In this document: positions 3,266 to 54,268 of the stretch, in pieces
Position numbering within the stretch: position 1 is the first letter of the stretch
How the letters are laid out: every line of letters starts with the position of its first letter
Source: a virus
Lineage: Duplodnaviria > Caudoviricetes
Direction: 5' to 3' (one strand)
Length of the DNA stretch: 64,000 bases
IMG/VR virus record: IMGVR_UViG_3300032893_000041
Coordinates: 241 to 64,240 of that record
Position numbers and translations under genes: made by a program
Notes under the pieces: generated by a model
Seen by the model: only the letters and a program-made list of their open reading frames with translations
Database searches by the model: none
Told to the model about the DNA's origin: nothing

Positions 3266-4213
3266 TTGATGGTTAACCATCTGACTACGCAATTTCGGCG
3301 CGGCGGCCTCAAGGTGGCGGCTAATGCCGTGCGGAGCGCAGGGCGGTTCGGAGACAGGCACTTGGTGCACGTCAACGATCGAGAGCTGCGCCAGATGACG
3401 GACGCTTGGGGCGCCCCTACCGTCAATCCCGATACCGGTCAACCGGAGTTCTTTGACTTCGGTGGCCTTTTGGGCGACATCGTAGGCGGCATTGGGGACG
3501 TTGTGAATGCGGTCGGGCCTATCGCCGGCCCGATCATGAGTCTGTTTACCGGGGCGCCCGCCGCGCCCGGAACCGGTCAGCAAACTACCTATACGCCACC
3601 TATCGGTCAGGGTGGTCCGCATCTCACTACCATTGCCGCTCCGAGTTCATCGTCATCGCCGCTGTCTGGCCTAGCCAGCGTGCTAGGTGGATTCTTCAAC
3701 CCGAAAAAGAACCCGGTCGGCATGGGAGCGCTCGTTTCGCTCATTGATGCGCTTTACCCACCAAAGACACCATCCGTGGCCCAGCAATTTGCTACAGTGC
3801 AGAACGCGGCAACGAAAGGTGTTCCTGGATGGAATACGCCGCTGCCGACCGCGACCTATAACAACCCGCAAGTCATGCCGACGGGTGATCTCACTCGTTA
3901 TGGGGAGACGGGCGGGCAGGACTTCTATCCCGGCACGGACATGCCGGTCATTCAGAAGGCTCGAGGAGGCATGGGTCGCTTTCTAAACGGACCGGACGGC
4001 GGTCAAGAGGACACAGTGCCGGCCAATCTTTCGGACGGTGAATACGTCATGGACGCCACCACCGTATCCGACCTCGGAGACGGCAATCCCGCTGCCGGGG
4101 CTAAGAAGCTGGATCAGATGCGCGACCGCATCGCCCGCCATAAGGGCCGCCGGAAGCGCGTTCCTAACAAGTCTCATGCGAACGCGCTGGCATACCTTCC
4201 GGGAGCTAAATAA
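3266..4213 (+). CDS. Putative internal virion protein with two GG-preceded small domains
   Basis: FRRGG...GDRHLVHVNDRE...NPDTGQPEFF and KARGG...EDTVPANLSDGEYV motifs; GAGGG RBS. Confidence 0.6.
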   Translation: MMVNHLTTQFRRGGLKVAANAVRSAGRFGDRHLVHVNDRELRQMTDAWGAPTVNPDTGQPEFFDFGGLLGDIVGGIGDVVNAVGPIAGPIMSLFTGAPAAPGTGQQTTYTPPIGQGGPHLTTIAAPSSSSSPLSGLASVLGGFFNPKKNPVGMGALVSLIDALYPPKTPSVAQQFATVQNAATKGVPGWNTPLPTATYNNPQVMPTGDLTRYGETGGQDFYPGTDMPVIQKARGGMGRFLNGPDGGQEDTVPANLSDGEYVMDATTVSDLGDGNPAAGAKKLDQMRDRIARHKGRRKRVPNKSHANALAYLPGAK

Positions 4214-5353
4214 ATGAGCATCGGATCATTTCTCTTCGAGGGTACGACGCCACCGCCTAAGACGACGGCGAGCAGCACGTCCACTCAATACCCGCAATGG
4301 TACACCGACTATCAGAAGGGGTTGTTGGCTAAGGCGGATGTTCTCGGAGCGCAGCCGGCACCCGTCTACGGTGGGCAGCGCGTCGCCGCCTTGCAGCCGC
4401 AACAGCAGCAAGCTTTCAACTTGGCGAGTTCTAGTGTCGGTAAGTACCAGCCGCTGTTGAATGAGGCGCAGGCCGGTTACGAGTCGGCCAGCAATCCGAA
4501 TCTTAATTCGGATGTGTTTAACTCATATAAGTCTCCGTATATCAACGATGTGGTAAATCAAATTGCGACGCTGGGTAACCGAAACCTGATGGAGAACGTG
4601 CTGCCCAACGTATCCGACCAGTTCATCAGGTCTGGCCAGTTCGGCTCGTCACCGCAAGGAGAATTTACGGCTCGAGCCATCCGGGACAGCGATGCTAACG
4701 TCCTCAATGCGCAGACGCAAGCGTTGCAGGCGGCCGAAGAAGCCGCGATGTCTAACTACCAGACCGCCATGGGCCGCCAGATGACCGGCGCCAGCAACCT
4801 TGCTGGCCTCGCCGATACCAGTCAGGGCATTGGCCTCAAGGATATCGGAACCCTAGAGGCTGCTGGTTCGGAACAGCAACAGCAACAGCAGAAGAATCTC
4901 GATACCGCATACTCCGATTGGCAAGAGCAGACGGCCTATCCTCGCAATACGGTGGACTGGATCAGTCAAGTTCTCAACGCGCAGACCCCTTCGGCCGTCA
5001 CGTCGAACGTGTCCACGCAGCCAGCGGGATACGTCAATCCGTCGCCGTTGCAGAGCTTCCTTGGCACCACGGCGGCCTTCTCGGGCCTCAAGAAGGGCGG
5101 CCTCGCCAAGTGTAAGGGCGGTCGCATGAAGTATGACATGGGCGGCCCCGTATACCCACGTGCCCTCCGCGTGGCACCGCCGCCGGTCCCAATGACGGAT
5201 GACTCGCGCTATGGATGGATTCGCAATCGATCAGTACAACCAATGGTGAGTCCGCCATCTCCGACAGGTGCCGATCCGCGCTACGGATGGATTCGCCGTC
5301 CATCAATTATGCCGAATGCCAGGAAGGGCGGCCTCGCCCTCTGTGGAGCATAG
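4214..5353 (+). CDS. Putative DNA ejection/pilot internal virion protein
   Basis: Gln/Ala/Ser-rich helical protein (YKSPYINDVV, GQFGSS); C-terminal cluster of GG motifs. Confidence 0.6.
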   Translation: MSIGSFLFEGTTPPPKTTASSTSTQYPQWYTDYQKGLLAKADVLGAQPAPVYGGQRVAALQPQQQQAFNLASSSVGKYQPLLNEAQAGYESASNPNLNSDVFNSYKSPYINDVVNQIATLGNRNLMENVLPNVSDQFIRSGQFGSSPQGEFTARAIRDSDANVLNAQTQALQAAEEAAMSNYQTAMGRQMTGASNLAGLADTSQGIGLKDIGTLEAAGSEQQQQQQKNLDTAYSDWQEQTAYPRNTVDWISQVLNAQTPSAVTSNVSTQPAGYVNPSPLQSFLGTTAAFSGLKKGGLAKCKGGRMKYDMGGPVYPRALRVAPPPVPMTDDSRYGWIRNRSVQPMVSPPSPTGADPRYGWIRRPSIMPNARKGGLALCGA

Positions 5354-5356
5354 CCG

Positions 5357-7039
5357 ATGGGCGCCTTGCAGATTATGACCGATCCGCCGCAGGATGATGT
5401 TGATCCGCAGGACGCGGCCGAGAATGCCTTGGTCGGAGGCGCGGAAGGTTACGGTGATCCGGCCACGGGCTATGGCCTCGACATCAACGATCCGTCAGCG
5501 TGGATACCGGACACGTCGTCCGCTCAATCTGCCTTGGCCAAAATGCGTTCGCTGTCCGAGTCTTATCTCGGCGGCGAAGACATGGGGCAGGCATTCGACG
5601 AGATAAAGCAAAGCAAGTTGAACGCCTTGCGCGCGGCCCGCGCCGCGTATCAGCCGCCGGTTGATCGCTCAAACCTCGCCCGGCTGGCGCTTGGCGCGGC
5701 CATGATGCAACCGACGATATCCGGGCATCTAAGCGAAGGCATCAGCAACGGGATACAGGCGATGTTGCCGTGGTTGGCGGCGCAGCGCAACACGGAAGAT
5801 TACAACCGGCAGGGTCTGGCGGGAATAAGCGCTCAGGAGGCAGAGCTTCCGGGCGATATTCTGTCGTCTCGCCTCACGACCGGCACCGATCTCTTGACCA
5901 AGGCACAAGAACTTGAATTCAAGATTCGCGACCTGCAACAGCGCGGTCTATGGCAGCAGATGAGCGCGGCGGCGCGGCTCAAAGCCGCCAACATCATGGC
6001 GCAGGCTAGGCGCGATACCGCGAACATTAATCAGCAAGGTAGCAACGAGCGGCGCATGCAGGGTCTCGTTCAGCAGGCGCAGACGCTCGCCAAGCAAGAC
6101 GCGCAAAACCTCATTGCCATGCATTACAACCTGCCCGCCGATCAATACGACAAGTGGGTGGACGACCGGACCGCCCATATCATGCAAAGCTGGGGATACA
6201 AGCCGGAAGACTATCAGGGTGTGTTCAACGTCGGGCAGCAACCGAACCCGGCGGAGGCTGAACTACAAAACGAACTTAGCCAGGAAGCCGTGCAGCGCGA
6301 CCCTGGCGGGGCTATTCCCCCTTCGGCCGCCGCGCCGGGCGCGTCTGGTCCGCACCCCGGTGACTTCCATGTTCCGACAGGCTCGACTGCCACGCCCCCG
6401 GCGGTTAAGCCTCAGACGGCGGCAGCTCCTCCTCAACCGGCTGCCGCCGTCGCCACCCCGGACGCTACCATAGCGGCGGCTGAGAACGCAACCGGGTCCG
6501 GCAATGATTGGAGCAGAGCTGCCGCTCAGTTAACGCCGCAGGAGCAGAAGGACGTTGATACGGCGGACGAGAATACTAACACTCTGATGATGGCTGAGAA
6601 GGGCCTCAATGACGCGTTGGCGCTGAACGACAAGGCATGGGGTGGGGCGCTGGCGGGTGCGCATGCATGGGTGCAGCGCAATCTGCGCGGCGTCGTGCCG
6701 GGTTATCACATGTCCGATGAGGCCGTCAACACGACCAATTTTCAGAACATCATCGACCAGCAAGTATTGCAGAACCTAAAGGCGTCGTTTGGCAGCACCG
6801 GCATCACGGAAGGCGAGCGCGCTTTCTTACGGACCGTGCAAGGGTCGGTCAATTTGTCGCCGGAGGAGCGGAGGCCGATTCTGGAACGCGGCAAACTGTT
6901 CATTGCTAAGCGGCGTCAATACAACGAGTGGAAGTCGAAGGCTATCCGCGACGGCAACTACCGCAATCAGTCGTACGCGGAATATCTGAAATCGATCAAC
7001 GACCCGATGTACGAGCAGATAGTGGGGAAGACGCCATGA
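5357..7039 (+). CDS. Putative internal virion/ejection protein
   Basis: 560 aa Ala/Gln-rich with Pro/Ala linker; C-terminal FGSTGITEGERAFL-type domain; starts MGAL. Confidence 0.6.
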   Translation: MGALQIMTDPPQDDVDPQDAAENALVGGAEGYGDPATGYGLDINDPSAWIPDTSSAQSALAKMRSLSESYLGGEDMGQAFDEIKQSKLNALRAARAAYQPPVDRSNLARLALGAAMMQPTISGHLSEGISNGIQAMLPWLAAQRNTEDYNRQGLAGISAQEAELPGDILSSRLTTGTDLLTKAQELEFKIRDLQQRGLWQQMSAAARLKAANIMAQARRDTANINQQGSNERRMQGLVQQAQTLAKQDAQNLIAMHYNLPADQYDKWVDDRTAHIMQSWGYKPEDYQGVFNVGQQPNPAEAELQNELSQEAVQRDPGGAIPPSAAAPGASGPHPGDFHVPTGSTATPPAVKPQTAAAPPQPAAAVATPDATIAAAENATGSGNDWSRAAAQLTPQEQKDVDTADENTNTLMMAEKGLNDALALNDKAWGGALAGAHAWVQRNLRGVVPGYHMSDEAVNTTNFQNIIDQQVLQNLKASFGSTGITEGERAFLRTVQGSVNLSPEERRPILERGKLFIAKRRQYNEWKSKAIRDGNYRNQSYAEYLKSINDPMYEQIVGKTP

Positions 7040-7199: not shown

Positions 7200-8843
7200 A
7201 TGGGTGCCCTCGCGGACCTCGCGTTGACCGCCTTAAAGCGGGCGGCAGCGGGATCAGCCACGGGCGCCGGGATGGCCGCCATTACGTCGGGCGGCGATCC
7301 TTCGGCCATCGGGACGGGCGCTATCGGTGGCGGGATTGCCGGCGGGGCGACCACGGGCCTCGGGCTGACGGGCGGCGCTCTGGCCAAGATGGCAGGCACC
7401 ATGCGCGACCCGGCCAACCGGGCGCGGGCCATGCTTTTGAAGCGGATGGAGATGGACAGCCTGTCTCCGTACGAGCTGGGCATGCGGGCCAATCAGGGAC
7501 GACCCGGCGTGACGCCGTTGTTCACCCACGGCAAGCGCAACCTCTTGACGCTGACGGAGATGGGCTATCAGCAACCGGGTCCGGGTCGCAACGTCGTCGA
7601 CGACTATTACAAGCAATTCTTTCAGAACCAGGGCAACCGCGTTCAAAACGCCGTCAACTTCCATCTAGGCGCTGATCCGCGTGCCACGCAGACAGTAAAG
7701 GCATTGCAGACGTTGAAGCAGGCCGCCGCCGACCCGCTGTATAAGGAAGCGTACGCGAACCTTCCGGACTTCCACGATGAGGAGATGGACGACATCTTGG
7801 CACGGGCGGAGAAGCTGGGTGCCTTCGGCAAGATGCAAACGATACAGACGGCGGACAAGAGCGTGCCGCAGGACCTACCACGGTCCGTCGAGTTGGAAGA
7901 CGGAACGAAGGTCTACCGTATGGGGACGCAGCACGCAGACCTCGTGAAGCGCGGCCTGGACTCGATCATCAACGACCATACCGACGACATGACTGGGCGC
8001 ATGGACGACGTTGGCCGCGCCGTAACCGGCCTCAAGAAGCGTTTCCTCGACCGCATGGACGAACTGAACCCGGCATACGCGAAGGCGCGCAAGGCATGGA
8101 GCGATCCGACTACGTCGCAGAATGCCGTTAACATGGGCGTCAAGTTCCTCAGCACGCCGGTCGATCAGATGGACCACTGGGTCGAGAAGTTCGACCACCT
8201 GTCGGACGGCGATCAAGACTTCTTTCGCACGGGCGTGGCCACTGGCATCCGCAACCGCATGCTGTCCGGCACGGAAGGTCAGGATGTGGTGAAGAAGTTC
8301 TTCACCAACAAGGCGTCGCGCGAGAAGTTGCGGGCCATCTTCCCCGATCAAGCGTCCTTCGACGCGTTCGCCCGGAGCATGGACGAGGAACTGCGCATCG
8401 CCGGAAGCAAGAACGTCGTAACCGGCAATTCCCGCACGGCGGGCCGTCAGATCGAGCAGAGCCAGCTCGAGCCGCAGGACCTGGACCTGTTTGGCGACAT
8501 CATGCATCTGGCTCGCGGCAACCCGATTCCGCTGGTCGGCAGCGTGTGGCGCCGCTTGCAGGCCAGGGGCATCGGTCCGGAGACGAGCCACGAGCTGCTA
8601 AAGATGCTGTACGAGAGCGACCCCGGCAAGATCAAGGCACTGGCATCTACATTGCGGGGCCTGCAACGGAAGACGCGCGCCATCCAGACCGGAAAGGGCG
8701 CGGTCGGAACCGGGGTAGCCGGCGGGGCGGGCGCCCTGGCCGGCGTCGATATTGGGCAGGACTTCACGGGTGGGCCGGGTGATGATAGTACGGTGTCACG
8801 CGACGATCCGGTCGACATCGACTCCATTCCTGGTGTACAGTAG
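7200..8843 (+). CDS. Putative internal virion/ejection protein
   Basis: 547 aa; Gly/Ala-rich ends; GNSRTAGR motif typical of phage DNA-transfer proteins; starts MGAL. Confidence 0.6.
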   Translation: MGALADLALTALKRAAAGSATGAGMAAITSGGDPSAIGTGAIGGGIAGGATTGLGLTGGALAKMAGTMRDPANRARAMLLKRMEMDSLSPYELGMRANQGRPGVTPLFTHGKRNLLTLTEMGYQQPGPGRNVVDDYYKQFFQNQGNRVQNAVNFHLGADPRATQTVKALQTLKQAAADPLYKEAYANLPDFHDEEMDDILARAEKLGAFGKMQTIQTADKSVPQDLPRSVELEDGTKVYRMGTQHADLVKRGLDSIINDHTDDMTGRMDDVGRAVTGLKKRFLDRMDELNPAYAKARKAWSDPTTSQNAVNMGVKFLSTPVDQMDHWVEKFDHLSDGDQDFFRTGVATGIRNRMLSGTEGQDVVKKFFTNKASREKLRAIFPDQASFDAFARSMDEELRIAGSKNVVTGNSRTAGRQIEQSQLEPQDLDLFGDIMHLARGNPIPLVGSVWRRLQARGIGPETSHELLKMLYESDPGKIKALASTLRGLQRKTRAIQTGKGAVGTGVAGGAGALAGVDIGQDFTGGPGDDSTVSRDDPVDIDSIPGVQ

Positions 8844-8847
8844 CATC

Positions 8848-9216
8848 ATGGGCGCCATATCCAAGATCATTCAAGAATTGAGGGCCGCCGCTCAGTTCGG
8901 TGACCATGAGATGCGGCAGACGGCCTGGGAGAAGCTGTTGGATGAGCATGCGGTCCAACCGGGTCATATTCGTCCCATTAGTGCTGGAGACCTGGGAGCC
9001 GATCCGTCCTTGCAACACGACTTGGACCGCTACGTCAATCATTTCAACATCTATCACGACCCCAATGCTGAAAAGTACCTGACCGGGGGTGACTGGCGCG
9101 ACACCCACGAGGACGACGCCTGGGAGCACCTAGAAAATATGGAGCAGGACATCCTGGACCAGATAGCCCCAGTGGACGAGAGAGCCGGGGCCATCGCTAA
9201 ATTAAGAGCGCAGTAA
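8848..9216 (+). CDS. Small putative cargo protein (starts MGAISKII)
   Basis: ATG 4 nt after the upstream stop; TAATG coupling to the next gene. Confidence 0.55.
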   Translation: MGAISKIIQELRAAAQFGDHEMRQTAWEKLLDEHAVQPGHIRPISAGDLGADPSLQHDLDRYVNHFNIYHDPNAEKYLTGGDWRDTHEDDAWEHLENMEQDILDQIAPVDERAGAIAKLRAQ

Positions 9217-12200
9217 TGGGTATCAAGGACTTTCTCTTCTCGGTCGCGGAGGAACTGGCGAAGTCGGCCAAGCAGCCAATGCCGCTCAAGGATTGGCAGG
9301 CTTATCTTCGGCCGGGGCGGGTCCTCACCCGGGGTGGCATCCAGTTCCCGCTGCGCAAGGACGAGGTCCAGCACGGGGCGCTAGGGAAGCTGGGTCCGCA
9401 GATGGGGTCGGCCGATGTACTGTCGCCGGACGAAATGGGAACCCTCCTCCACAACGTGCGGAAGTACTCGACCGACATGCCGGAGTTCCAGACCCATCAG
9501 GCCGGGACCACGTCGCGCGGCATGGCATATAATGACCGTATGCACTACAAGGACCAGTACCAATTGCCCGGCCCGAAGCTGGGGCAGTCGGAGGAGCTGA
9601 CGACGTTGCCGAGTTCAGATTTCGTCGCCTCCACCGCGCACTTCGGCGGCAAGCCGGGCCTGCTGTCGTGGTCGCGCACGACGCGGCGGCCGGTGATAAG
9701 TCCCGAGAATGACGTGGTAAACCCAGGCGACGGGGGCGAGACCGCCCAGCACATCGAGGAAATCCAGTCGGACTGGCACCAGCGGGGGCGGGACGAAGGA
9801 TACGCATTGGGGCCGGATGCTGCAGAAGAATATGATCGACTGAGAAATAAACTTAATACTAGCATGAACAGCAATCCCATATATACAGCTTACACGAAGA
9901 CGACGAGATGGGGCGATAAGTCATTTGACTGGTGGATCGATCACGACGGGTCGGGTTTTTCAATTTTAGATAACCCGAAACGTTTTGGTATGACGCCGGA
10001 AGATGTAAGAGACTATACTAGAATGAAGAAATTATATTGGGGCTTGAGGGGCAATAAACCTCCTCCCGCTCCCTACAAGGACACCTACGCCGAGTTGGAA
10101 CTCAAGAAGAACATCGCCAAGGCGATCGACCAGGGCGACTCTTACGTCACCTGGACAACCGGCGACCAGCAGGCGGACCGTTGGGGACAGGCGCTGCGCA
10201 ACACGGTCGACGAATTGCATTGGAAAAAGACGCCGGACGGCAAGTATACGATCATCCCCATGAAAGGCGGCAACGAACTCGGAGCGGACGGGCGCTTCGA
10301 GAACCTGTCGCCGGCCGACCTCGGGGACACCGTCGGCCGCGACATCGCAAAGCGGATAGTGGAGGGGGAGGGGCGCCACCAGCCGCTCAGTGACCAGGAG
10401 AAGGCCCGCCTGGATCAGTATATTCAGGACCGGGATGAAGCTGTCAATCGGTCATCTGAAATTTCGAACCAGATCAGTGATCTGAATCAGGAAAACCGCC
10501 AATTATACGAAACTGAAACAGACGGCGGACGGCAGCGAGTCGATAATCTTACTCGCATGGCGGCCCTGGCGCGAGAGCGTGACCGGCATCAGCACTTGAT
10601 ACGAGAGACTTCTCATAATTGGGACTACAACGATCTGGCCCGCCGTTATGCAGCATTTAACACCATGGGGCCGGACGCAGGCGTCATCACCAGCGACAAC
10701 CTCACCATTGGCGGCCGGGGGATGCGGAAGTTCTATGACCGCGACGTGCCGGCCGCCGCCAAGAAACTGGCCGATCAGTACGGCGGCGAGGTCACCAAGA
10801 TAAAGATACCGGGAGAGAGCGCCGGGTCCGATATTCCACCAAATGTTCATGCCCCCATGGTCACGTTGTTGGCGGAAGGACACCCCAACAGCGGATCTTT
10901 AGATGAAGACGATGTGCACGACAATATTCATCAGATTCTAACATCTGTTGCCGGGGGCGAAGACGAGGGAGCGCCACAATACATAGATGACGCCGCTTAT
11001 CGGGTCATCAAGGCCATCAACGAGCCGCATAGCAACCCCGACATCGAAGATTATGATAATTGGTATTCAGCCCTGAACGGTCTAAAAGGGGCCTTGCAGG
11101 AACATTATCGAATGCAGGCCAAGCCGCAGGAGGTCCACGCGCTGCGCCTAACGCCCAAGATGGTGGAGAACGTGAAGAAGATCGGCCTGCCGCTTTTTAG
11201 TGCTGGCACCGCCGCCGCCATGGGCCTGCCGAAGGACTATTCGCCTGATGGGTCGCCCGCGCAAGGGTTCGCGGAAGGTGGTCTGGTGAAGGGACTATTT
11301 AAAGCAGCTCTCAGACACATAGATACCGGAGAAATTTACACGGGTGCTAATCATTTAGACGCTCTTGCCGATTATGTAAGTAAGAACCACCCGAATTTGT
11401 TAAATGCGTCTGACGCTAGAAACTTAAGCATGGACCTTCCTACCAGCAAGGATGATTTTTTGAATTCCATACTACCTAAGTTGGAAGACGGATTTGTAAA
11501 CAGTAACGGCGATTTTGTAACGCGCCATCAAGCCTTATCCGACATTCGTAATTCACAGCCTATGAACGTGGTGGATGAAGAACTCGGCCTTCATTCTTCG
11601 GATTTAGACAACGAAGGCACTTCAATATATGATCCCCATGTCTTACCTCCTGACATTGAGGGATACATTAAGGAAATATCGCAATTACGTCCGGGAGTAA
11701 CCGACGACGGCAAGTCCGCCCTTGATTATTACTTAGATCACGTACGGCATTACGTGACAAACGTGTATAACGGCGATAAGAAAAAAGTGCGTAACGCAAT
11801 AAATACGCTGACGGAGGCGTGGAATGATCCTCATGCTACAAATGAGCCGTACGGCAATTGGTTAAACGCGAATCAGAAGTTTAGTAATTCCTTGACGGCG
11901 CGCACGCCCTCATCGAATACGAAGTTTGCTTCCGGTGGTCTAATCTCGCGGCCTCAGCCGAAGAAGCCACTGCCGGACACGGAACTGGATGCGCTTACCG
12001 CCAATGCGCAAGACCCGTTTTGGTGGGTGCAGGGTTACCGGGCGCCGGTCGATCCCAACGTATTCTCCTACTGGGAAGACCCGCCGCGCGGCGATACCGC
12101 CGCCGACCCTATATCCGGGACGATCAATGATGTCGGCTCTGCGCTAAATGCGTTCATCGGGTCCGGGATGCAGGACCTTACCCCAGAGTCCGGACCGTTG

Positions 12201-13202
12201 GACATTGCCGCCGCCCTAGGCAATGACCTCGCCACGGTAATGACCGGCGGCGGCAAGCTATCTGAGGCCGTAGCCAAGCCAGCTTTGGAATTGCTTTCCA
12301 AGGTTTCACCGGCATTCAAGCGCATGTCACCACTGGCGATGCTCGGTATCCATTCGAAGGCCAACCAACCAGCCGAACCCGAATCTAACCCTATCTCGGA
12401 TGAACTATGGGACCTACAAGCGGCTAAGAACGCGTATTACGACCCGTATGCGCCGCGCGGATGGAACGTTCCAGAACAGCCGGGTTTGGACATACCGGGC
12501 ATGGCCAGGGGTGGGTCCATCTTCGACCGGCTGTCCGGGCCGCATCGGGCGATGCATGAGGCGCTCTACCGGCTGCCGGGTATCGACGACCTCCCGGAGA
12601 CGCCGCTGCCGGCTGCGTCCGGGGCCACGGGAGTGGCCTCTGGCACCTGGACCCCCACCACTATAGCCGCGACCCAGCCGACGCTTCTCCAGAGCGCTCC
12701 CGTGGGCCAGGACGGGGTGTCTCTGACCGACATCCTCGGGTCGCCGCCGGTCCTGCGCCCAGGCCATCTTCCGGTACCCCCACACCCCGATATAAGTATG
12801 GAGAACGACATGAGAACGTGGAAGACTACCGCCCCACCCGCCATCGAGCCGCTGATTCAGGCCGCCGCGACCCAGCATGGCGTGCCGCTGGCGGGCCTGC
12901 GGGCGCTGCTCGAGCAAGAGAGCGCTTTCGACCCCCACGCGGTGTCGCCGGTCGGCGCCAGGGGGATAGCGCAATTCATGCCGGCCACGGCCAGGGACTT
13001 CGGCATCGACCCCTTCAATCCGACGCAGGCCATTCCGGCCGCCGCCAAGTACCTGCGGGCGCTCTACGACAAGTTCGGGTCATGGGACAAGGCCCTGGCC
13101 GCCTACAACTGGGGCCAGGGAAACGTCGCCCGTCACGGCATCAACGCCTTGCCCAAGGAGACGGCCGATTACGTCGCCAATCTCGGCCCGCAGTTTAGCT
13201 AG
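9216..13202 (+). CDS. Large multi-module (polyvalent-type) internal virion protein with C-terminal lytic transglycosylase (SLT) domain
   Basis: SLT motifs QESAFDPHAVSPVGARGIAQFMPATA and ALAAYNWGQGNV; EEIQSDWHQ motif; internal FAEGG/FASGG/MARGG junctions. Confidence 0.8.
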   Translation: MGIKDFLFSVAEELAKSAKQPMPLKDWQAYLRPGRVLTRGGIQFPLRKDEVQHGALGKLGPQMGSADVLSPDEMGTLLHNVRKYSTDMPEFQTHQAGTTSRGMAYNDRMHYKDQYQLPGPKLGQSEELTTLPSSDFVASTAHFGGKPGLLSWSRTTRRPVISPENDVVNPGDGGETAQHIEEIQSDWHQRGRDEGYALGPDAAEEYDRLRNKLNTSMNSNPIYTAYTKTTRWGDKSFDWWIDHDGSGFSILDNPKRFGMTPEDVRDYTRMKKLYWGLRGNKPPPAPYKDTYAELELKKNIAKAIDQGDSYVTWTTGDQQADRWGQALRNTVDELHWKKTPDGKYTIIPMKGGNELGADGRFENLSPADLGDTVGRDIAKRIVEGEGRHQPLSDQEKARLDQYIQDRDEAVNRSSEISNQISDLNQENRQLYETETDGGRQRVDNLTRMAALARERDRHQHLIRETSHNWDYNDLARRYAAFNTMGPDAGVITSDNLTIGGRGMRKFYDRDVPAAAKKLADQYGGEVTKIKIPGESAGSDIPPNVHAPMVTLLAEGHPNSGSLDEDDVHDNIHQILTSVAGGEDEGAPQYIDDAAYRVIKAINEPHSNPDIEDYDNWYSALNGLKGALQEHYRMQAKPQEVHALRLTPKMVENVKKIGLPLFSAGTAAAMGLPKDYSPDGSPAQGFAEGGLVKGLFKAALRHIDTGEIYTGANHLDALADYVSKNHPNLLNASDARNLSMDLPTSKDDFLNSILPKLEDGFVNSNGDFVTRHQALSDIRNSQPMNVVDEELGLHSSDLDNEGTSIYDPHVLPPDIEGYIKEISQLRPGVTDDGKSALDYYLDHVRHYVTNVYNGDKKKVRNAINTLTEAWNDPHATNEPYGNWLNANQKFSNSLTARTPSSNTKFASGGLISRPQPKKPLPDTELDALTANAQDPFWWVQGYRAPVDPNVFSYWEDPPRGDTAADPISGTINDVGSALNAFIGSGMQDLTPESGPLDIAAALGNDLATVMTGGGKLSEAVAKPALELLSKVSPAFKRMSPLAMLGIHSKANQPAEPESNPISDELWDLQAAKNAYYDPYAPRGWNVPEQPGLDIPGMARGGSIFDRLSGPHRAMHEALYRLPGIDDLPETPLPAASGATGVASGTWTPTTIAATQPTLLQSAPVGQDGVSLTDILGSPPVLRPGHLPVPPHPDISMENDMRTWKTTAPPAIEPLIQAAATQHGVPLAGLRALLEQESAFDPHAVSPVGARGIAQFMPATARDFGIDPFNPTQAIPAAAKYLRALYDKFGSWDKALAAYNWGQGNVARHGINALPKETADYVANLGPQFS

Positions 13203-40278: not shown

Positions 40279-41821
40279 TGCTCTCGTTGATCTTCGGCCG
40301 CGACGGATAACGCTCAATCCGCTTGCCGCTATCGCGGATATGCGCATGCTTTGGTTGCACGAGGCGCGGCCAAAGCAACTAGCTCCTCCCGGCGACTGGC
40401 TGACGTGGCTTAACCGTTGCGGTCGCGGCTATGGCAAGACGCGATTGGGCGCGGAAGAGATTTTATGGCGGGCCGGTACTAGGCCTAATACGCGGTGGGC
40501 CGTTCTGGCGCCGACGTACAATGACTGCCGCTTTACTTGCTTTGAGGGCGAGTCCGGCATTCTGGCACGGCTGCCGCCGGTCTGCATCACTAAGAATGGA
40601 TGGAACAAGTCGTACCTCGAGCTTAAGTTGTGGAACGGGTCGGAGATTCGTGGATTCGCGGCCACGGAACCGGGCCGCATTCGAGGTCCGCAGTTTCATG
40701 GCGGCTGGTTCGATGAGCTGGCGGCTGCTGCGCGCGAGTCGTTGGAGGAGGCATGGTCCAACTTGCAATTTGCGTGCCGCTTGCGTTACGAGGACTTCGC
40801 CCCTCAGATCATCATCACGACGACGCCGAAGCCGATTCCGATCATCAAGAAGATTCGACTGGCGCCCGGCACGATCACTACGAGCGGCTCGACCTACGAG
40901 AATAAGGAAAACTTAGCGCCGTCATTCTTCGACCGCATCGTTCAGTATGAAGGCACCCGGATCGGGCGCCAAGAGATTCATGGCGAGGAGATCGACCCGG
41001 AGGAAGCCGGCATCGTCAAGCGGTCATGGTTTAAGCTGTGGCCGATGAAGAACGGCTTACCTCGATTTCAGTTGGTCATCATGTCGCTGGACACGGCGTT
41101 TAAGGAAAAGCAATATGATAAGAACAATGACCCCGATTATTCTGCTTGTACTACTTGGGGCGTGTTTAATATACAGACCGGCGTGGAGAGGTTGCCGGGT
41201 GGCGTTGAGAAGAAGAAATATCGTGCCAACGTTATGCTACTTGATGCTTGGCGTGATCATCTCGGGCTACCTGATCTGGTTGATAAAGTACGCGCTCAAT
41301 CTCGGCTGACGTTCGGCGCCATTGAGACGCCACTAATCAAGAGCGCTCTTTATGGGGTCGTGCCGTCGCGCATCTCGGGCAAGGGGCGCAAGGTCGATCT
41401 GATCGTAATTGAGGACAAGGCTAGCGGCATCAGCCTGATTCAGACGTTGGCCAAGCACAAGGTATTCGTGCACCCTTACAATCCGGACGGCGCGGATAAG
41501 GTGATGCGTCTTCATATCGTGTCGCACATTCCGAATTCGGGCATCGTGTGGATACCGGAGAGCCGCTCGACCATCGACATGGAACCGAGTGATAAGAAGT
41601 TCTCTGCGTGGTCGGATGAGTTCTTGGACGAGGTCTGCACGCAGCCGAACGCCGACTACTGGGATTACACCGATACATTCACGCAGGCGCTACGAGTTCT
41701 CGTTGATAAAGGAATTCTGTCCGTGACCGTGCCGAAAGCGTACGAGAAGGACCCGGACGCATCACCGCCGCCGGGGCGGCGCGGCGGGCGTCGTCGTCGC
41801 CATAATCCGTATGGCAGCTAA
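40271..41821 (+). CDS. terL: Terminase large subunit
   Basis: RPKQ, GRGYGKT, RGPQFHGGWFDE, TTTP; nuclease SLDTA, DYSA, IEDKASG, DYTDT. Confidence 0.95.
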   Translation: MTDALVDLRPRRITLNPLAAIADMRMLWLHEARPKQLAPPGDWLTWLNRCGRGYGKTRLGAEEILWRAGTRPNTRWAVLAPTYNDCRFTCFEGESGILARLPPVCITKNGWNKSYLELKLWNGSEIRGFAATEPGRIRGPQFHGGWFDELAAAARESLEEAWSNLQFACRLRYEDFAPQIIITTTPKPIPIIKKIRLAPGTITTSGSTYENKENLAPSFFDRIVQYEGTRIGRQEIHGEEIDPEEAGIVKRSWFKLWPMKNGLPRFQLVIMSLDTAFKEKQYDKNNDPDYSACTTWGVFNIQTGVERLPGGVEKKKYRANVMLLDAWRDHLGLPDLVDKVRAQSRLTFGAIETPLIKSALYGVVPSRISGKGRKVDLIVIEDKASGISLIQTLAKHKVFVHPYNPDGADKVMRLHIVSHIPNSGIVWIPESRSTIDMEPSDKKFSAWSDEFLDEVCTQPNADYWDYTDTFTQALRVLVDKGILSVTVPKAYEKDPDASPPPGRRGGRRRRHNPYGS

Positions 41822-41827
41822 GCCAAA

Positions 41828-41857
41828 TTGACACGGGAGCGCCGGCTGGCGTAGGAT
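41828..41857 (+). promoter_or_regulatory. Sigma70-like promoter
   Basis: TTGACA-18 nt-TAGGAT. Confidence 0.6.
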
Positions 41858-41863
41858 GGCGGT

Positions 41864-42000
41864 ATGCGGTGGGTAGGCGGTGACTTCCTAGGAGCGCACG
41901 TAGCCCCCATCATCCAGGGCGAGGGTGCCAGTAATGAGTCCAAAGAGCTGTGACACGGCCAGCTACATTATTGGAACAACACCCTCCCCGGATGCTTTTT
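41864..42000 (+). ncRNA. Candidate ~135 nt structured RNA ending in a U-tract
   Basis: Nested pairings CATCC/GGATG, GAGGGTG/CACCCTC, CCAGTAATG/CATTATTGG, AGCTG/CAGCT followed by TTTTT. Confidence 0.55.
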
Positions 42001-42001
42001 A

Positions 42002-42856
42002 ATGGGAGCGCTGTCTCAAATTCTATCAGAGTTGACTAACGTTGCTCGCCAGGGCGTGCGTAATGTTGCCCGCGAGGGTAAGCGCCAGGGTCATGAATGG
42101 GCGACCGCCGGCCCAAACGTCGAGACGAGAGACCCTATCTTGATGTCAATTCCGGAGCGGTTGATGTCTACGTCCGGCGAGCGCAATCGGGTAAACGATA
42201 TCTATAAGTTGCATGAATACTCGCTAGGACCGAACGCCAGCATCGATCCGCATCGGGCGTCGCTGGGCGACCCCTATTTCACGGTGCATAATCACCCGAC
42301 CGGATTTCCGTCGCCTTCGTCGGCAGACCTAAACTTTCATAATTGGATGCCGACGCCGGATAAGCACGAGATGATAGTGGCTGGCGTGCCGCATTGGAGA
42401 GACCCAGTGATGGGTGATTACCAGTGGCGGGGTGAAGACCCGCATTGGATAGGGCTGGGGCCGTTATCCGGCATTTCGCGTTACTCGACGCCGGGCGGCG
42501 TGATCGACCGCGACTCGCAGCGGGATTATGCGTCGAGGGTTTACCAGCACATGGCGCGAGGGTTGACCGACCTCGTAACTAACCCGGACACGACCGTTCG
42601 GTACGTGCCGAAAGGCAGCGGCTCGCTGCATGACGACATCAAGGCCGCCATCGATGCGCCGGACATCGAGCCGTGGGATTCCTATAGACAGTATTTTGGA
42701 AGCTTCCCGTTGCGCAACATGGCCGAGCGCTCGCCTAATGACGTGCGCTACCAATTGCAGATGCATCACCCGCTGGATCAGCACATCTATGATTCGATCT
42801 TCGACGTGATGAAGCGACACGGTGCGCTCGACAAGGCAGAAGGCGGACTGGTCTGA
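42002..42856 (+). CDS. JAB/MPN+ (JAMM, RadC-like) domain protein with C-terminal AEGGLV
   Basis: HNHPTGFPSPSSAD fits HxHx7Sx2D; upstream Glu candidate in GHEWA. Confidence 0.7.
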   Translation: MGALSQILSELTNVARQGVRNVAREGKRQGHEWATAGPNVETRDPILMSIPERLMSTSGERNRVNDIYKLHEYSLGPNASIDPHRASLGDPYFTVHNHPTGFPSPSSADLNFHNWMPTPDKHEMIVAGVPHWRDPVMGDYQWRGEDPHWIGLGPLSGISRYSTPGGVIDRDSQRDYASRVYQHMARGLTDLVTNPDTTVRYVPKGSGSLHDDIKAAIDAPDIEPWDSYRQYFGSFPLRNMAERSPNDVRYQLQMHHPLDQHIYDSIFDVMKRHGALDKAEGGLV

Positions 42857-43947
42857 TGGGAGCGCTCGACAAGATCATCCGCGCAAATCTCGCGCACCTG
42901 GAGGAACTTCTAGGCCATTCGACCGTGCCGGTGGGTCCCGCCGCCCACGAGGAGGCACGACGCGCGGTGTCGATGGGAGTAGCGCCATCATGGGCACAGG
43001 CGCAGGCAAAGGGCCTCCCGCTTGATCCCGTGAGCATTGAGAACCGTGCCAACGCGCTAGGCTTTACCAATCGAGCGTTTCATGGCACGCATCGTTTTCC
43101 GTTCGACGAGATGGATGAAGGTGACCGCCAATTTTCGGAAGACCCAACCGACTATGACTTTCATTCATTGGAGGGCCGCCGGATCGTGCCGGAAGACCCG
43201 GACACGACCGTGTCTCGTTATCTTGGTGCACACATTTCACGCGGTCCGAAGATAGCGCAATACTTTACGGGGTATAAGCGTAGTCCTTATACAGCCGTTC
43301 TAAACCCGATGACCCAAGAATATGAGCCTATAGGTGGAGTTGCTTACCAACATATTGCCATGCCCGGTGGTCGCATCATTCCACTTCGGTTCCGTGGCTC
43401 GCAATATGAGCTGCCGCAGAAGTGGTTGTTTAGTGATTCTGTAAACCGTCGTATGCTACCTGATGAGCGACCTGATTTAAATAAACCGATCTTTGATGAC
43501 CTTGCCGTGGATATCGATGCGGCGACGCACGCACTCCTGGCCGATCCAGAGTTTGCGCGCTCTACGGCGCATGGCGAGGGTACGCCGTCCTTCGACAAAT
43601 TGAGACAACTGAGTGATCGCGGTAATGAATACGACATGCGGCGGTTTGTTCAGGCGCGACACAATGACCTCAATCCGTTGATGATGTCGCCGGGTGAGGA
43701 AGACCCTGATTACCTTGATCCCAATACGCTGCAATCAATCATGGATATTTATCGCGGTAACCTCTTAGGGCGCGGTCATTCCGTGATTCGTTATCACAAC
43801 ACCATGGAAAACGAAACGATGGGTGCTCCATCCGCTGATTCTTACATCGTGTTAGACCCCAGTCGGGTGCGCGGTCCGTCGGCGATCTACGACCCGGACC
43901 TCAGCCACCTAGGCGGGCTGAGTTATTTTGAAGGTGGAGAAGTTTGA
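42856..43947 (+). CDS. Putative ADP-ribosyltransferase (ART-PolyVal-like) with C-terminal FEGGEV
   Basis: AFHGT...LGAHIS..P..AQYF...GGRIIPL...SYIVLDPSRVRGPSAIYDP pattern. Confidence 0.6.
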   Translation: MGALDKIIRANLAHLEELLGHSTVPVGPAAHEEARRAVSMGVAPSWAQAQAKGLPLDPVSIENRANALGFTNRAFHGTHRFPFDEMDEGDRQFSEDPTDYDFHSLEGRRIVPEDPDTTVSRYLGAHISRGPKIAQYFTGYKRSPYTAVLNPMTQEYEPIGGVAYQHIAMPGGRIIPLRFRGSQYELPQKWLFSDSVNRRMLPDERPDLNKPIFDDLAVDIDAATHALLADPEFARSTAHGEGTPSFDKLRQLSDRGNEYDMRRFVQARHNDLNPLMMSPGEEDPDYLDPNTLQSIMDIYRGNLLGRGHSVIRYHNTMENETMGAPSADSYIVLDPSRVRGPSAIYDPDLSHLGGLSYFEGGEV

Positions 43948-46700: not shown

Positions 46701-46880
46701 ATGGCGATCGATGTGAAATTCCTGCCGCTCCACAAGGGCATCGCGATGGGGCTGCACCAAGAGACGAAAAATTCGGCGAACGCCGGACCGCGCTCGAACT
46801 ATGCCAAGGGTGGGGCGGTCTCTCGGCCGGGAAAGAAGGCGCCCGCATTCACGAAGAAGCCTTCGAAAGCCAATTGCTAA
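46701..46880 (+). CDS. 59-aa basic protein with YAKGGAV motif (not in ORF track)
   Basis: AGGAGG RBS; MAIDVKF...NYAKGGAVSRPGKK... Confidence 0.6.
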   Translation: MAIDVKFLPLHKGIAMGLHQETKNSANAGPRSNYAKGGAVSRPGKKAPAFTKKPSKANC

Positions 46881-46901: not shown

Positions 46902-47096
46902 GTGATCGAGCGGATAATTCAATTGCTCACCGAAGAGAGGTCACGGTTTTCCGTGGAGATGCTCAGCAAAGGTTTCAACGGCGACTCGTCCTATTTGGCC
47001 GGTAAGGCCGTGGGGCACGTGGCCGGCTTGAGCCGGGCGCTCGACGTGATAGCCCAGTTACTCTCTGCGGAGGAGAAAAGGGAGAAAAAACTCTGA
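46902..47096 (+). CDS. Small head-region protein
   Basis: 64 aa; GGAGG RBS; Y...VG...GL motif; lies between portal and GroES. Confidence 0.6.
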   Translation: MIERIIQLLTEERSRFSVEMLSKGFNGDSSYLAGKAVGHVAGLSRALDVIAQLLSAEEKREKKL

Positions 47097-47542
47097 TGTC
47101 GCAAGTCAGTCATTTGAACGTCTCCATGGGATATGATTCCTTGGAGGAGGCATTCCCGGACGTGGAATGCGGGCACGTCGCCCTAGGTACCACCGTCATC
47201 GTTCAGTTGCGCGTCCCAAAGTCGAAGACCAAGGGCGGCGTGATATTGGCATCGGACACGCGCGATACCGAACAGTGGAACACGCAGGTTGCCAAGGTCG
47301 TCGAGGTCGGGCCGGTTGCGTTTCGCAACCGTCAGACCATGCAGTCGTGGCCGGAGGGTGCGTGGGCGAAGAAGGGCGACTACGTGCGTGTGCCGAAGTA
47401 TGCGGGTGATAAGTGGCAAGTCGAATTCGTTCCGAAGGGGCGCATGCGCACTCAGGACGATGTCGCGATCTTCTGCATCTTTAACGATCTGGAATTAAAG
47501 GCCAAGATTCCGGACCCGTTGACCGTCAAGTCGTTCGTCTAG
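47096..47542 (+). CDS. groES: Co-chaperonin GroES-like protein
   Basis: KTKGGVIL, AKVVEVGP, KKGDYVRVPKYAG, IFND. Confidence 0.85.
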   Translation: MSQVSHLNVSMGYDSLEEAFPDVECGHVALGTTVIVQLRVPKSKTKGGVILASDTRDTEQWNTQVAKVVEVGPVAFRNRQTMQSWPEGAWAKKGDYVRVPKYAGDKWQVEFVPKGRMRTQDDVAIFCIFNDLELKAKIPDPLTVKSFV

Positions 47543-52445: not shown

Positions 52446-52757
52446 ATGAGCGCCAATCAGACAAGAACCAGAGGCGTACGCATCGCGGCCACGGGCTTCA
52501 TACATGCCGACGTGGCTAAGCGCCTGTGGGGCTTCTATGTGAACGTCGGGTCTGGACAGCTTACCATCCGGGATGGTGGGGCCGCCGGCAACGTCGTATG
52601 GGATTCCGTGACGGTCCTGAACCAATGGATTGAATTTACGGCGCCCATCGTCGCCACTCACCCTGGTCCGACCGGTGAACCCGGTTCTTCATTGGCTGGC
52701 GGCCTGCACGTCACGCTGGCCGGCGGCCTCGACATAACCTTTCAGGTGGACTACTGA
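52446..52757 (+). CDS. Small beta-rich structural protein
   Basis: AGGAG RBS; LTIRDGGAAG...GLHVTL. Confidence 0.55.
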   Translation: MSANQTRTRGVRIAATGFIHADVAKRLWGFYVNVGSGQLTIRDGGAAGNVVWDSVTVLNQWIEFTAPIVATHPGPTGEPGSSLAGGLHVTLAGGLDITFQVDY

Positions 52758-52759
52758 TC

Positions 52760-53977
52760 ATGGGAAAAACTCTCAAGTATGGAAGTCACGACTTTCCAAC
52801 GTCGTTTGGCTTCACTGGTTCTTCCGGTAGCGGGCCGGTCAAGGTCCGCAGTCACACCCGGACGCGGGCGGCGCCAAAATCCTCCCTGCCGTCGCCCGCG
52901 ACTTCTTCGGAGCGGATTCCTCCGCGCGGGGTGATGAAGAATCCGGCGGTGTTCGATGCCAGACGGTCTACCGGCGAGTCCGTCCTCCCGTCCGGCGTTA
53001 TGCACTCCAGTAAGGCGAAGGCGGCCTTCGGCAACACGCCCAGCGGGGGCGAGAATATTGCGCCCGCCGGCAAGTTGAAGTCGGTAAACAGTCTGGCGCG
53101 CGGCGGCAAGCTAAAGATCAAAGTAAAGAAGGGTGCGCTGCATGAGGAACTCGGCATCGCCAAGGACGCGCCCATCTCATCCAAGCGTTTGTCTGCAGCT
53201 AAGTCCAAGGCCAAACACACCGGGAACAAGAAGCTGTTGAAGCGGGTCGTTTTTGCCGAGAACGCTCGCAAGTGGAATCATGCTGATGGCGGGGCGGTCA
53301 CGCGCCCCGAAGTCAAGAAGATTGCGGACCGAGAGGTCGCCGTCCACAACCGCAACCCCAACGCTCATCCGAATATGGCTGGCGGTGGGCGGGTTCGCAA
53401 GCGCAATTATGACACGGGCGGTGCCGTCCCTTCGGCCGTCCCATTGGTGCACGGGAACAGCGCCTATCAGGGTAGTTCCGTGGACAACATCGACGGTCAG
53501 GCGCAGCAGACGGACCGGGCCGTGGACGTATATGGTCGCGGGTCGGCACCGATGACCAAGGAGGCTATCGCGGCGGCCATTTCCAACGCCATGGGTCTCA
53601 TGGGCGGCCTCGGACCGATTGAGACCGCCATGGCTACGGGATTGGAACGAGCGACGGGTAGCGCTCCGGGATCGCTCGGCGGCATCCAAGACGTGCCGGG
53701 CTACGTAGGCCCTAACCCAGCCGGGCGGACTGCGATAGCATCCGGAAAGGCTCTCTTAGGCTCGCAACAAGCAGCGGACCGGGCTGCCTCCATGGCGGCG
53801 CGGGAAGGCACCAGCTTCGGCGGCGGGACTGGCAACACGTCAGTGGCCGGCGGGCCGTCAGTCGGCGGCCTCGCCATCGGCAACGACGGGCGGGTGGCCG
53901 GCGGCATCAGGCGAGGCGGCGCCATCCGAAAGGTACGCGGCTTCAACGGCAAACCTTTAGTAGGAGTAGGAAGTTGA
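52760..53977 (+). CDS. Basic low-complexity protein with five GG motifs (putative internal head polyprotein)
   Basis: LARGG, HADGG, MAGGG, YDTGG, IRRGG; KKGALHEELGI...KRVVFAENARKW module. Confidence 0.65.
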   Translation: MGKTLKYGSHDFPTSFGFTGSSGSGPVKVRSHTRTRAAPKSSLPSPATSSERIPPRGVMKNPAVFDARRSTGESVLPSGVMHSSKAKAAFGNTPSGGENIAPAGKLKSVNSLARGGKLKIKVKKGALHEELGIAKDAPISSKRLSAAKSKAKHTGNKKLLKRVVFAENARKWNHADGGAVTRPEVKKIADREVAVHNRNPNAHPNMAGGGRVRKRNYDTGGAVPSAVPLVHGNSAYQGSSVDNIDGQAQQTDRAVDVYGRGSAPMTKEAIAAAISNAMGLMGGLGPIETAMATGLERATGSAPGSLGGIQDVPGYVGPNPAGRTAIASGKALLGSQQAADRAASMAAREGTSFGGGTGNTSVAGGPSVGGLAIGNDGRVAGGIRRGGAIRKVRGFNGKPLVGVGS

Positions 53978-54091
53978 CGCAGCGACAGGACGACATTCAG
54001 GCGCTGGGCAAGATCAAACAGCGTTACGATAATGAGGCCGGCGCGATGATCGGTCGCGCCATCCGATACTTGCAACGGTTGGAGGCCGAAG

Positions 54092-54268
54092 ATGCCGCTC
54101 AAGAAAGGCAGCAGCCAAGCGACGATCAGTCACAACATCGAAGAAATGGTGGAAACCGGGCATCCGCAGAACCAAGCGGTAGCGGCGGCGGAGAGGACGG
54201 CACACCCCAACTCCAAGAAGCCGGTTAAGAAGGCCAAGGGTGGTCTGATCAAGATGTCACCCTATTAG
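54092..54268 (+). CDS. 58-aa basic protein [16 protein letters not shown]... ending [12 protein letters not shown] (not in ORF track)
   Basis: GGAGG RBS; G.P..QAVA motif; GG motif near the C-terminus. Confidence 0.6.

Follow-up and report, generated by a model that had tools for sequence, protein, structure and literature searches.

A short Gly-Gly motif at the module ends and junctions of putatively ejected proteins in a tailed phage

A short glycine-glycine motif recurs in the late proteins of a tailed phage (Duplodnaviria; Caudoviricetes), of which we analyzed bases 241 to 64,240 of the 64,240-base single-contig genome IMGVR_UViG_3300032893_000041. This stretch of 64,000 nucleotides is the window, and its genes are named here by their first base in it. 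An initial annotation, made from the sequence alone, had listed 18 copies, and every one of them was confirmed. The copies are instances of one short linear motif, Phi-[A/K/D]-x-G-G-x-[V/I], where Phi stands for F, Y or M, or now and then for K, R, L or H. The codons vary from copy to copy, and for this reason we place the selection that keeps the motif at the level of the protein. Its carriers are ejection proteins (3266, 4214 and 9216), small basic late proteins (46701, 52760 and 54092) and effector-like proteins (42002 and 42856). The data firmly support a protein-level signal of virion-internal or ejected proteins that marks module ends and junctions.

What this signal does is a more tentative matter. 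The explanation that we put first, while giving it somewhat less than even confidence, is a module-end or junction signal of ejected proteins that is linked to their processing. Under this hypothesis the motif would be an exposed turn with two hydrophobic anchors, closing one module and separating it from the next, and in ejected proteins made of several modules a cut would fall at the motif or next to it, freeing a wall-degrading or effector module. We infer that the motif-bearing proteins are present in the virion, that those of the window are cut at the motif, and that every copy is recognized by one common partner, which could be a protease or else a surface of the channel or portal.

Copies, carriers and enrichment

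The carriers and their copies are all on the plus strand (lengths in amino acids, aa).

3266..4213, + strand: ejection-type protein of 315 aa; weak copy FRRGGLK at 3293-3313
starts at nucleotide 3956, + strand: long tape-measure-type module KARGG...PANLSDGEYVMDA in the 3266 protein
4214..5353, + strand: DNA ejection protein of 379 aa (phrog_4287); LKKGGLA 5087-5107, KCKGGRM 5108-5128, YDMGGPV 5132-5152, ARKGGLA 5318-5338
9216..13202, + strand: internal or ejection protein of 1328 aa, SLT transglycosylase at residues 1213-1310; FAEGGLV 11268-11288, FASGGLI 11925-11945, MARGGSI 12501-12521
42002..42856, + strand: JAB/MPN-like protein of 284 aa; ends KAEGGLV (42833-42853)
42856..43947, + strand: cargo-like protein of 363 aa; starts MGAL, ends YFEGGEV (43924-43944)
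46701..46880, + strand: protein of 59 aa just after the portal gene; YAKGGAV 46800-46820
52760..53977, + strand: basic, glycine-rich late protein of 405 aa between the capsid and adaptor genes; LARGGKL 53093-53113, HADGGAV 53279-53299, MAGGGRV ~53375-53395, YDTGGAV 53408-53428, IRRGGAI 53906-53926
54092..54268, + strand: protein of 58 aa with a phrog_2423 N-terminal domain; KAKGGLI 54230-54250, 6 residues from the end

The enrichment of the motif was tested against 300 within-protein shuffles in a gene set chosen from the list of open reading frames (ORFs) and third-position G+C, with no gene finder; the set comprises 37 late proteins, 12,079 aa in total, and 45 early ones, 8,514 aa in total. 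The pattern proposed in the initial annotation occurs 12 times in the late proteins, where 1.12 +/- 1.09 are expected and none of the 300 shuffles reaches 12. In the early proteins it occurs 3 times against 0.79 expected, a count that 12 of the 300 shuffles reach. A narrower core, [AD].GG[LASE][VI], sharpens the difference (late 9 vs 0.56, 0/300 shuffles; early 0 vs 0.17). The GG dipeptide alone is mildly over-represented in both sets (late 125 vs 106.8, early 67 vs 47.1), and a reversed-pattern control in the late proteins gave 1 match where the strict forward pattern gave 9.

These patterns were composed after the copies had been seen, and a position matrix was for this reason built from outside sites, 28 in number, all of them outside both the window and its close relative, the uncultured contig G001. 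In the late proteins this matrix finds 4 sites scoring at least 7 bits and 6 scoring at least 5 bits, against shuffle means of 0.10 and 0.30, the highest count in 200 shuffles being 2; in the early proteins it finds none. In its specific form the motif is confined to late proteins. The top matrix match is FAEGGLV (15.1 bits), and YAKGGAV (11.7) and FASGGLI (5.3) also score well. Altogether 5 of the 18 copies reach 5 bits and 3 more score 3.9-4.5; the sixth late site at that level, with its GG at residue 263 of the 47560 protein, is not among the copies first listed. Scores are low for LKKGG, KCKGG, ARKGG, FRRGG, KARGG, LARGG, IRRGG and YFEGGEV, several of which are still kept in G001. Overall, some half of the 18 copies count as strong.

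A looser pattern, [FYM]..GG.[VI], behaves differently. It also occurs in early enzymes (4 vs 0.5 expected), matches the major capsid protein and matches a conserved site in the terminases of relatives, and its broader version matches a GroES-like loop. By itself, the loose form is a common, generic turn.

The initial annotation had suggested that the tag ends or subdivides virion cargo proteins. The placement holds, as copies lie at C-termini or between apparent modules; that the carriers are virion-internal or ejected is a prediction from gene position and protein family. In the 1328-aa protein, MARGGSI lies about 110 residues N-terminal of the SLT domain. All copies of the 4214 protein fall in its divergent C-terminal tail, ARKGGLA 7 residues before the stop, and many small motif proteins share a further feature, a Cys near the C-terminus after the motif (...KANC in the window and in G001, ...LCGA, ...PAKC and ...GGAC). 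In the window such sites lie at 46872-46880 and 5345-5353, and others occur in the uncultured phage MW202545 and in several metagenome loci. A DNA repeat as the source of the copies was considered and ruled out, since codons differ both among the 18 copies and among the four MGAL protein starts described below.

Relatives, tape measure proteins and neighboring genes

The motif is conserved in homologues from G001, from MW202545 and among remote relatives of the 42002 protein. G001 is 34.1 kb long and an estimated 59% complete, and its proteins are 43-78% identical to the window's by BLAST. It keeps 13 of the 15 motif GG positions vs 18 of the 29 other GG, at an overall identity of 1725/2686 (64%); of its two motif losses, one is a deletion and the other a GGG counted twice. 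Both GG of the 3266 protein are kept, as are 4 of 4 in the 4214 protein despite a poor alignment of the tail. The motif-bearing half of the 46701 protein is the sole part conserved. In the 52760 protein 4 of 5 copies are kept and one falls in the deletion; its first 36 residues (window 52760-52870) are identical in G001, where identity over the full length is 46%. In the G001 homologue of 42856 the first residues are MGALDRII and the last YEEGGLV, and the homologue of 54092 ends KKAGGGLVKMKW.

MW202545, whose portal is 39% identical to the window's, shows the motif at the same gene positions. An 890-aa gene between its terminase and portal has 3 pattern matches and one more by eye. The 449-aa protein after its capsid genes, the positional counterpart of 52760, has 7 matches and a further near-C-terminal GG, and the small protein that is the counterpart of 54092, ending FKKGGKVNW, has one match 3 residues from its end. 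The ejection proteins hold 3 matches; in one of them a run CCCCACCC precedes A-S-G-G. Across the 33 late proteins of MW202545 the strict pattern occurs 9 times against 1.2 +/- 1.0.

The wider clade was sampled as 79 metagenome loci around portals about 30% identical, with the G001 contig excluded. After terminase-like proteins, proteins of more than 700 aa and exact duplicates had been dropped, [FYM]..GG.[VI] was found 50 times in 718 plus-strand proteins, against 7.5 +/- 2.7, and not at all in 406 minus-strand proteins. The consensus there is [YM]-K-K-G-G-K-V-K, in small Lys-rich proteins, at a median of 22 residues from the end, and these proteins have no BLAST-detectable similarity to the motif proteins of the window. 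In Caulobacter phage RW, gp066c has two copies and ends RYMDGGRV; outside gp066c, a pattern scan of RW found only a 44-aa ORF and one further late protein.

A peptide shared with the terminases, as a common portal-docking element, was considered and rejected. In 68 of the 79 loci R-[FY]-R-x-G-G-[FLY]-[IV] lies about 25 residues from the end of the large terminase, before an acidic tail that ends Y-Y; the window terminase has K-G at this place (41650-41700) and a different tail. Because of that K-G the site was treated as a structural turn and left out of the counts.

The initial annotation implied that the motif is special to this phage, and in this respect it needs correcting, as the motif belongs to a module spread through the tape measure proteins (TMPs) of siphophages, in which the TMP is the protein that long-tailed phages eject. 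There the short motif heads a module of about 45 residues in the C-terminal part of the protein, which reads [FY]-A-T-G-G-Y-V, then G-P-G-T-G-T-S-D-S-I-P-A, then L-S-x-G-E-[FY]-V, or in its general long form [FY]-A-x-G-G-x-V, G-P-G-x-G-x-S-D, I-P-A-x-L-S-x-G-E-[FY]-V. The TMPs examined also have additional short copies, standing alone, some dozens of residues downstream. In the window the long form occurs once, in the 3266 protein, and the other 17 copies are short forms. Residues 224-273 of 3266 match three PHROG TMP families (E 6e-6 to 9e-4), and the module matches 20 phage records, mostly TMPs of Rhodococcus, Streptomyces, Corynebacterium, Gordonia and Nitrincola phages, and also RW gp066c. 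As a single-sequence query against PDB sequences the 3266 protein found no match. At 315 aa it does not have the makings of a tail tape measure; it carries a module shared with TMPs and is not itself a TMP.

A profile of five module sequences, compared with TMPs of solved structure, matches Douge gp16 in two stretches (E 1.5e-28), JBD30 (E 1.5e-9) and, weakly, lambda gpH (E 0.15); as far as the structure reports describe these regions, the module is unresolved in all three. Pfam gave no coverage of the motif or module in 3266, 4214, 52760, the TMPs of P1201, CoffeeBean and Nitrincola phage, T5 pb2, lambda gpH or RW gp066c. Because the ejection proteins of T7 and P22 lack the motif, it is not universal. 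T7 does offer some loosely similar sequences: A-F-G-G-K-K closes gp6.7, A-R-A-G-G-K-K lies within gp7.3, whose last residues are G-G-G-I-N-I, and T-K-G-G closes gp13 (small virion proteins at L090 865-1131 and 1536-1835, and L100 3108-3524).

Between terminase and portal lie two genes that resemble injected effector modules. The 42002 protein has a JAMM signature of the form E...H-x-H-x7-S-x2-D, namely E32 followed by H-N-H-P-x6-S-x2-D at residues 96-109, and E32, H96, H98, S106 and D109 are invariant in 4 of 4 aligned family members. The family is small, with three homologues only among 1.84 billion representatives, 28-34% identical; the protein had no match in phage records, and the family none in viral contigs or genome contigs. 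In all four sequences L-D-x-A-x-G-G-x-V is invariant at the aligned positions, A-[ED]-G-G-x-V being preceded by L-D-Y in the homologues. Because two of the homologues end at the motif and one runs on with an extra domain of about 100 aa, the motif can be either an end or a junction. All four members match Pfam Prok-JAB (best E 7.3e-5); for 42002 itself the scores lie below the curated cut-offs (RadC 15.9 bits vs 22.1; Prok-JAB 14.3 vs 25). Its profile matches in the PDB are RadC (E 0.4) and AF2198 (E 1), its AlphaFold2 model has a mean predicted local distance difference test (pLDDT) score of 33, and 5 of 10 Atlas structure rows fall in clusters of JAB, Prok-JAB or RadC, none of them reaching the cut-off. 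For 42856 the ESM Atlas gives a lead to ART-PolyVal (PF18760) of 0.89 with 161 shared features, below the 0.9 cut-off; there was no Pfam match up to E 10, and no homologue was found beyond that in G001.

Both of these proteins start M-G-A-L and end G-G-x-V, as does the G001 homologue of 42856; in 42002 the start opens an N-terminal helix. Two ejection-arm proteins that are without the GG motif share the start:

5357-7039, + strand: ejection-arm protein, no GG motif, MGAL start
7200-8843, + strand: ejection-arm protein, no GG motif, MGAL start

These four use different codons for the start, which is found in 4 of 37 late proteins and in none of the 45 early ones; the number expected over the whole set of 82 is 0.055. 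The G001 homologues of the two ejection-arm proteins start MGAM and MGAI, and the remote 42002 homologues have G-A-L-x-x-L-x-E-L at residues 9-17. MGAL may, judging from these sequences, be a second, N-terminal tag of the same protein set.

The terminase-portal gap holds variable cargo-like genes: two in the window (41822-43947), one in G001 (L003 1479-2507), the 890-aa gene in MW202545 (L009 38151-40823) and, in RW, only a tRNA-Val. Because only 8 of 68 more distant loci have an ORF there, the gap is not a general hot spot. The late genes of the window are plus-strand genes that begin near 39.3 kb and continue past the contig end, where the two ends overlap by 127 bases, to 13.2 kb. They run in the order terminase, 42002, 42856, portal, Cpn10-like protein, scaffold, capsid, 52760, 54092, adaptor and tail genes, and finally the ejection arm, which comprises 3266, 4214, 5357, 7200 and, last, the 1328-aa protein with its C-terminal SLT transglycosylase. 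The stop of 42856 overlaps the start of the portal gene.

40235-41821, + strand: terminase
43944-46688, + strand: portal
47096-47542, + strand: Cpn10-like protein
start 47560, + strand: scaffold
start 49859, + strand: capsid

The nearest named relatives, judged by portal similarity, also include MW202545: the portal is 47% identical to those of Caulobacter phages RW, KcrB, RLK and GB2A and about 30-33% identical to those of roseophages CRP-901 and CRP-902 and pelagiphages HTVC027P and HTVC023P, the pelagiphages being classed as Podoviridae in a published abstract. Its C-terminus (window 46200-46688) is a Q/A/K/D-rich extension of about 150 residues. Portal and capsid had no match among PDB sequences, residues 600-1200 of the 1328-aa protein matched only themselves in the protein collection, and no relative of that protein was found in viral contigs. 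The 79 loci give 66 BLAST matches to a Cpn10/GroES-like gene that lies inside the head module; it is unusual for a co-chaperonin to hold a constant position within a set of structural genes. Residues 1 to 35-45 of the 54092 protein (window 54092-54200, phrog_2423) recur in 123 phage records, and in Acinetobacter phages and BcepB1A the region matches proteins annotated as head maturation proteases, at their N-terminus.

Competing explanations

The processing hypothesis draws on the coincidence of the motif with a mapped cut in T5, on its neighborhood to the cut in lambda and on its position between modules. Several points weigh against it. In this phage and its clade the cuts are predicted ones. 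T5 supplies just one case, and a flexible Gly-rich linker could be cut by any protease, the motif being irrelevant. In lambda, where the site is only approximate, a cut after residue 710 (77.7 + 14.6 kDa) fits the reported masses at least as well as one at the motif. For the proteins whose last residues are the motif, a cut before A would remove no more than a hexapeptide, hardly a sensible form of processing. The residue two after GG is near-invariant (46 V and 4 I at the 50 sites of the 79 loci), and together with the five proteins that end exactly there it looks more like a binding determinant than like a place of cleavage. Scans of 25 of the 37 late proteins with Pfam, PHROGs or both turned up neither a prohead protease nor any other, the JAB-like protein being only one candidate, and G001 keeps the motif and has no JAB gene at the syntenic place. 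The absence of the motif from the T7 and P22 ejection proteins counts here too. Lastly, the gene calls are heuristic, the narrow core [AD].GG.[VI] is unenriched in the 79 loci (25 vs 19.1 +/- 4.1), and these loci are related, so that counts over them are not independent. A marginal hint of a protease is that the first 54 residues of 54092 resemble the N-terminus of a protease PHROG (E 0.01). As for a prohead protease acting at the motif, the scaffold (47560) is without any of the listed copies and the capsid (49859) has only a loose-pattern match.

Nearly as likely as this junction and processing hypothesis, and in itself a real though minority possibility, is a tag that stays uncut and serves in docking or packaging by binding a single surface of the virion, whether portal, scaffold, inside of the capsid or tail channel. 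Such a tag would recruit internal proteins and interchangeable cargo to the procapsid or hold them in the channel, and proteins with several copies would bind multivalently, as the 5 copies in 52760 and the 7 matches in its MW202545 counterpart might suggest. The almost invariant V/I and the proteins that stop right after it fit binding well, the Pro that follows GG in several copies would be harmless, and the want of a protease among the late proteins scanned counts in its favor. The motif also survives while the rest of the small proteins diverges past BLAST detection, and the MGAL helix that the two cargo proteins share with two ejection proteins is a further point for it. In JBD30, the motif-headed module is predicted by the authors to be a 'hook' holding the TMP in the baseplate. 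Against docking, any receptor is putative, RW has the same head and portal genes yet few matches outside gp066c, and the internal proteins of T7 and P22 do without the motif. In T5, moreover, the resolved anchor in the published description consists of the 43 residues before the motif, which lies outside it, at the cut. A third reading, which we regard as unlikely, grants the copies no common function at all: glycine turns and basic, low-complexity tails would be alike by composition and by descent of a few repeats, and the T5 match would be chance. The loose pattern in early enzymes, capsid and relatives' terminases, with its broader form in the GroES-like loop, is what this reading expects, as are the poor matrix scores of about half of the copies, the unenriched narrow core in the wider clade and the modest excess of conservation in G001. 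Against it, strong sites are absent from early proteins and shuffles, the reversed pattern is rare, the motif is invariant at the ends of 42002-family proteins only 28-34% identical, and it recurs in unrelated protein families and in phages of both Actinobacteria and Proteobacteria.

Two more specific mechanisms fare worse. One is GG-directed cleavage by the phage's own JAB/JAMM-like peptidase, 42002, acting after or at GG to mature itself and the other tagged proteins. Deubiquitinase-type JAMM enzymes cut at GG, and hydrophobic-x-G-G resembles the tails that they read. The invariant JAMM signature with its upstream Glu, the Prok-JAB matches of all four members and the tag at the end of 42002 itself would suit such an enzyme, and the lambda tail protein gpK bears a JAB domain whose signature aligns locally with 42002 (hhalign probability 34%). 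In the passages of PMC12617516 on lambda gpH, its protease is given as unknown. We nevertheless consider this mechanism improbable. All Pfam scores fall below the curated cut-offs and the fold model of 42002 has a pLDDT of 33; G001, 59% complete, keeps the motifs and has no JAB gene at the locus; and MW202545 and the 79 loci have no such gene, apart from one chance pattern match in a minus-strand ORF. No ubiquitin-like domain that could precede the copies turned up in Pfam scans of 21 of the 37 late proteins, and several copies sit in basic, low-complexity tails. RadC-type JAB domains are argued, in passages of PMC5512222, to act more likely on nucleic acids than on peptide tails. The idea in the initial annotation that proteins are cleaved after GG also meets difficulty here, as the T5 pb2 cut, the sole mapped one that can be checked, precedes the A of A-E-G-G, and Pro follows GG in some copies. 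The capsid loading and the ligation that it also proposed are hypothetical. The other mechanism, which we think very improbable, is a chaperonin hook, in which G-G-hydrophobic-hydrophobic copies would mimic a GroES-type mobile loop and bind host GroEL in folding or assembly. It is the loop K-T-K-G-G-V-I-L of the phage's Cpn10-like protein, so like the tag, that suggests it. The tags have one or two hydrophobic residues after GG, where a GroES mobile loop has three after G or GG, as this Cpn10-like protein does; the wider clade has K-V-K, with one only. The loops of 65 aligned Cpn10-like relatives mostly have a single G followed by I/L-I/V-K, with no aromatic anchor, and in lacking GG they do not support GroEL mimicry, which we rejected.

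To return to processing, a wider version of the hypothesis would make Phi-A-x-G-G-x-V a general 'exit signal' of tailed-phage proteins that leave via the tail, common to podophage ejection proteins, injected effectors and siphophage TMPs and read by one conserved step, either a cut or a channel hand-over. We rate this as unlikely. If true, the lambda gpH cut would lie beside residues 733-738, and phage particles would take up foreign proteins given the tag and an MGAL start and bring them into cells. For few phages is it known how internal or ejected proteins are selected, retained and let go, and a motif found at the T5 cut, near the lambda cut and in podophage ejection and cargo proteins gives a concrete, cheap prediction for both model phages. 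Should the motif also act in loading, it would provide a handle for putting chosen proteins into phage particles. Should it be only a turn, the finding still documents a widespread TMP module with no Pfam coverage in the proteins scanned.

Comparison with known systems

The initial annotation knew of no characterised function for the motif, and literature searches with peptide strings and topic words likewise gave none among the papers listed. Short cargo-loading peptides are known from other viruses and shells, such as the T4 capsid targeting sequence and the cargo-loading peptides of encapsulins, and the adenovirus protease site, (M/I/L)-x-G-G, marks cuts in virion precursors next to two glycines. 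These systems are unlike the present one in sequence, in enzyme or receptor, or in virus group, and no homologues of adenovirus-type proteases or of T4 or encapsulin shells were tied to the motif here. A further parallel is P22 gp7, whose 20-residue leader is removed by host OpdA (note in record BK000583). Here too an ejection protein is processed, in this case by a host peptidase, and the leader ends just before K-G-G-K-G-G; what differs is that an N-terminal leader is lost and that the sequence falls outside the motif.

The one exactly mapped cut that could be compared with the motif is in T5 pb2. The passages of Linares et al. (2023; PMC10038345) on this protein place the cut after R1127, so that the muralytic part is separated from a hydrophobic stretch. 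Directly after R1127 comes A-E-G-G-M-M; pb2 has 5 GG in its 1219 residues, and no other of them forms an A-x-G-G. The pb2 protein is an ejected multi-module protein cut between its channel-forming and wall-degrading parts, at the motif, and the 1328-aa protein of the window has a copy, MARGGSI, ahead of its SLT domain. The two differ in that pb2 has one copy, whereas the window has 18 candidates, many of them in small proteins with no enzyme module.

Lambda gpH is also a TMP that is cut in a glycine-rich C-terminal region holding two motif copies, a long-form one with GG at 736-737 and a short one with GG at 781-782. As described in passages of the Ur-lambda paper (PMC12617516), gpH gives rise to gpH* and gpHC, reported as fragments of about 78 and 14 kDa, with gpH* corresponding to roughly residues 1-710; this 2025 paper states there that it is not yet known where the cut falls or what catalyzes it, and that cutting has been demonstrated only for the T5 and lambda TMPs. 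We computed that a cut after residue 733 would give 79.8 + 12.5 kDa. Because cuts after 733 and after 710 both fit, the masses do not decide between them. Lambda differs in that its cut is estimated near residue 710 and its module-profile match is weak. In JBD30 the profile matches the TMP at 1018-1069, starting G-F-A-S-G-G, which coincides with the predicted hook: the authors predict that residues 1022-1066 fold into two helices plus a hairpin, by which the TMP is anchored in the baseplate. The likeness has its limits, as the cut proposed there lies at 1066, at the far end of the module, in a region unresolved in the map.

For the cargo genes, the comparison of choice is with polyvalent proteins. 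The relevant passages of Iyer et al. (2017; PMC5512222) describe effector domains, among them RadC-type JAB and ADP-ribosyltransferase domains, that are packaged with DNA and thought to be processed into modules; the word 'linker' is absent from the text, and none of the passages listed describes a shared end motif. The modules of the window differ from these in being mostly separate genes, and no zincin peptidase or MuF anchor was found with them. Nonetheless, 42002, 42856 and the 890-aa gene beside the portal of MW202545 fit the picture of packaged effectors, and polyvalent proteins are the closest published frame for this cargo.

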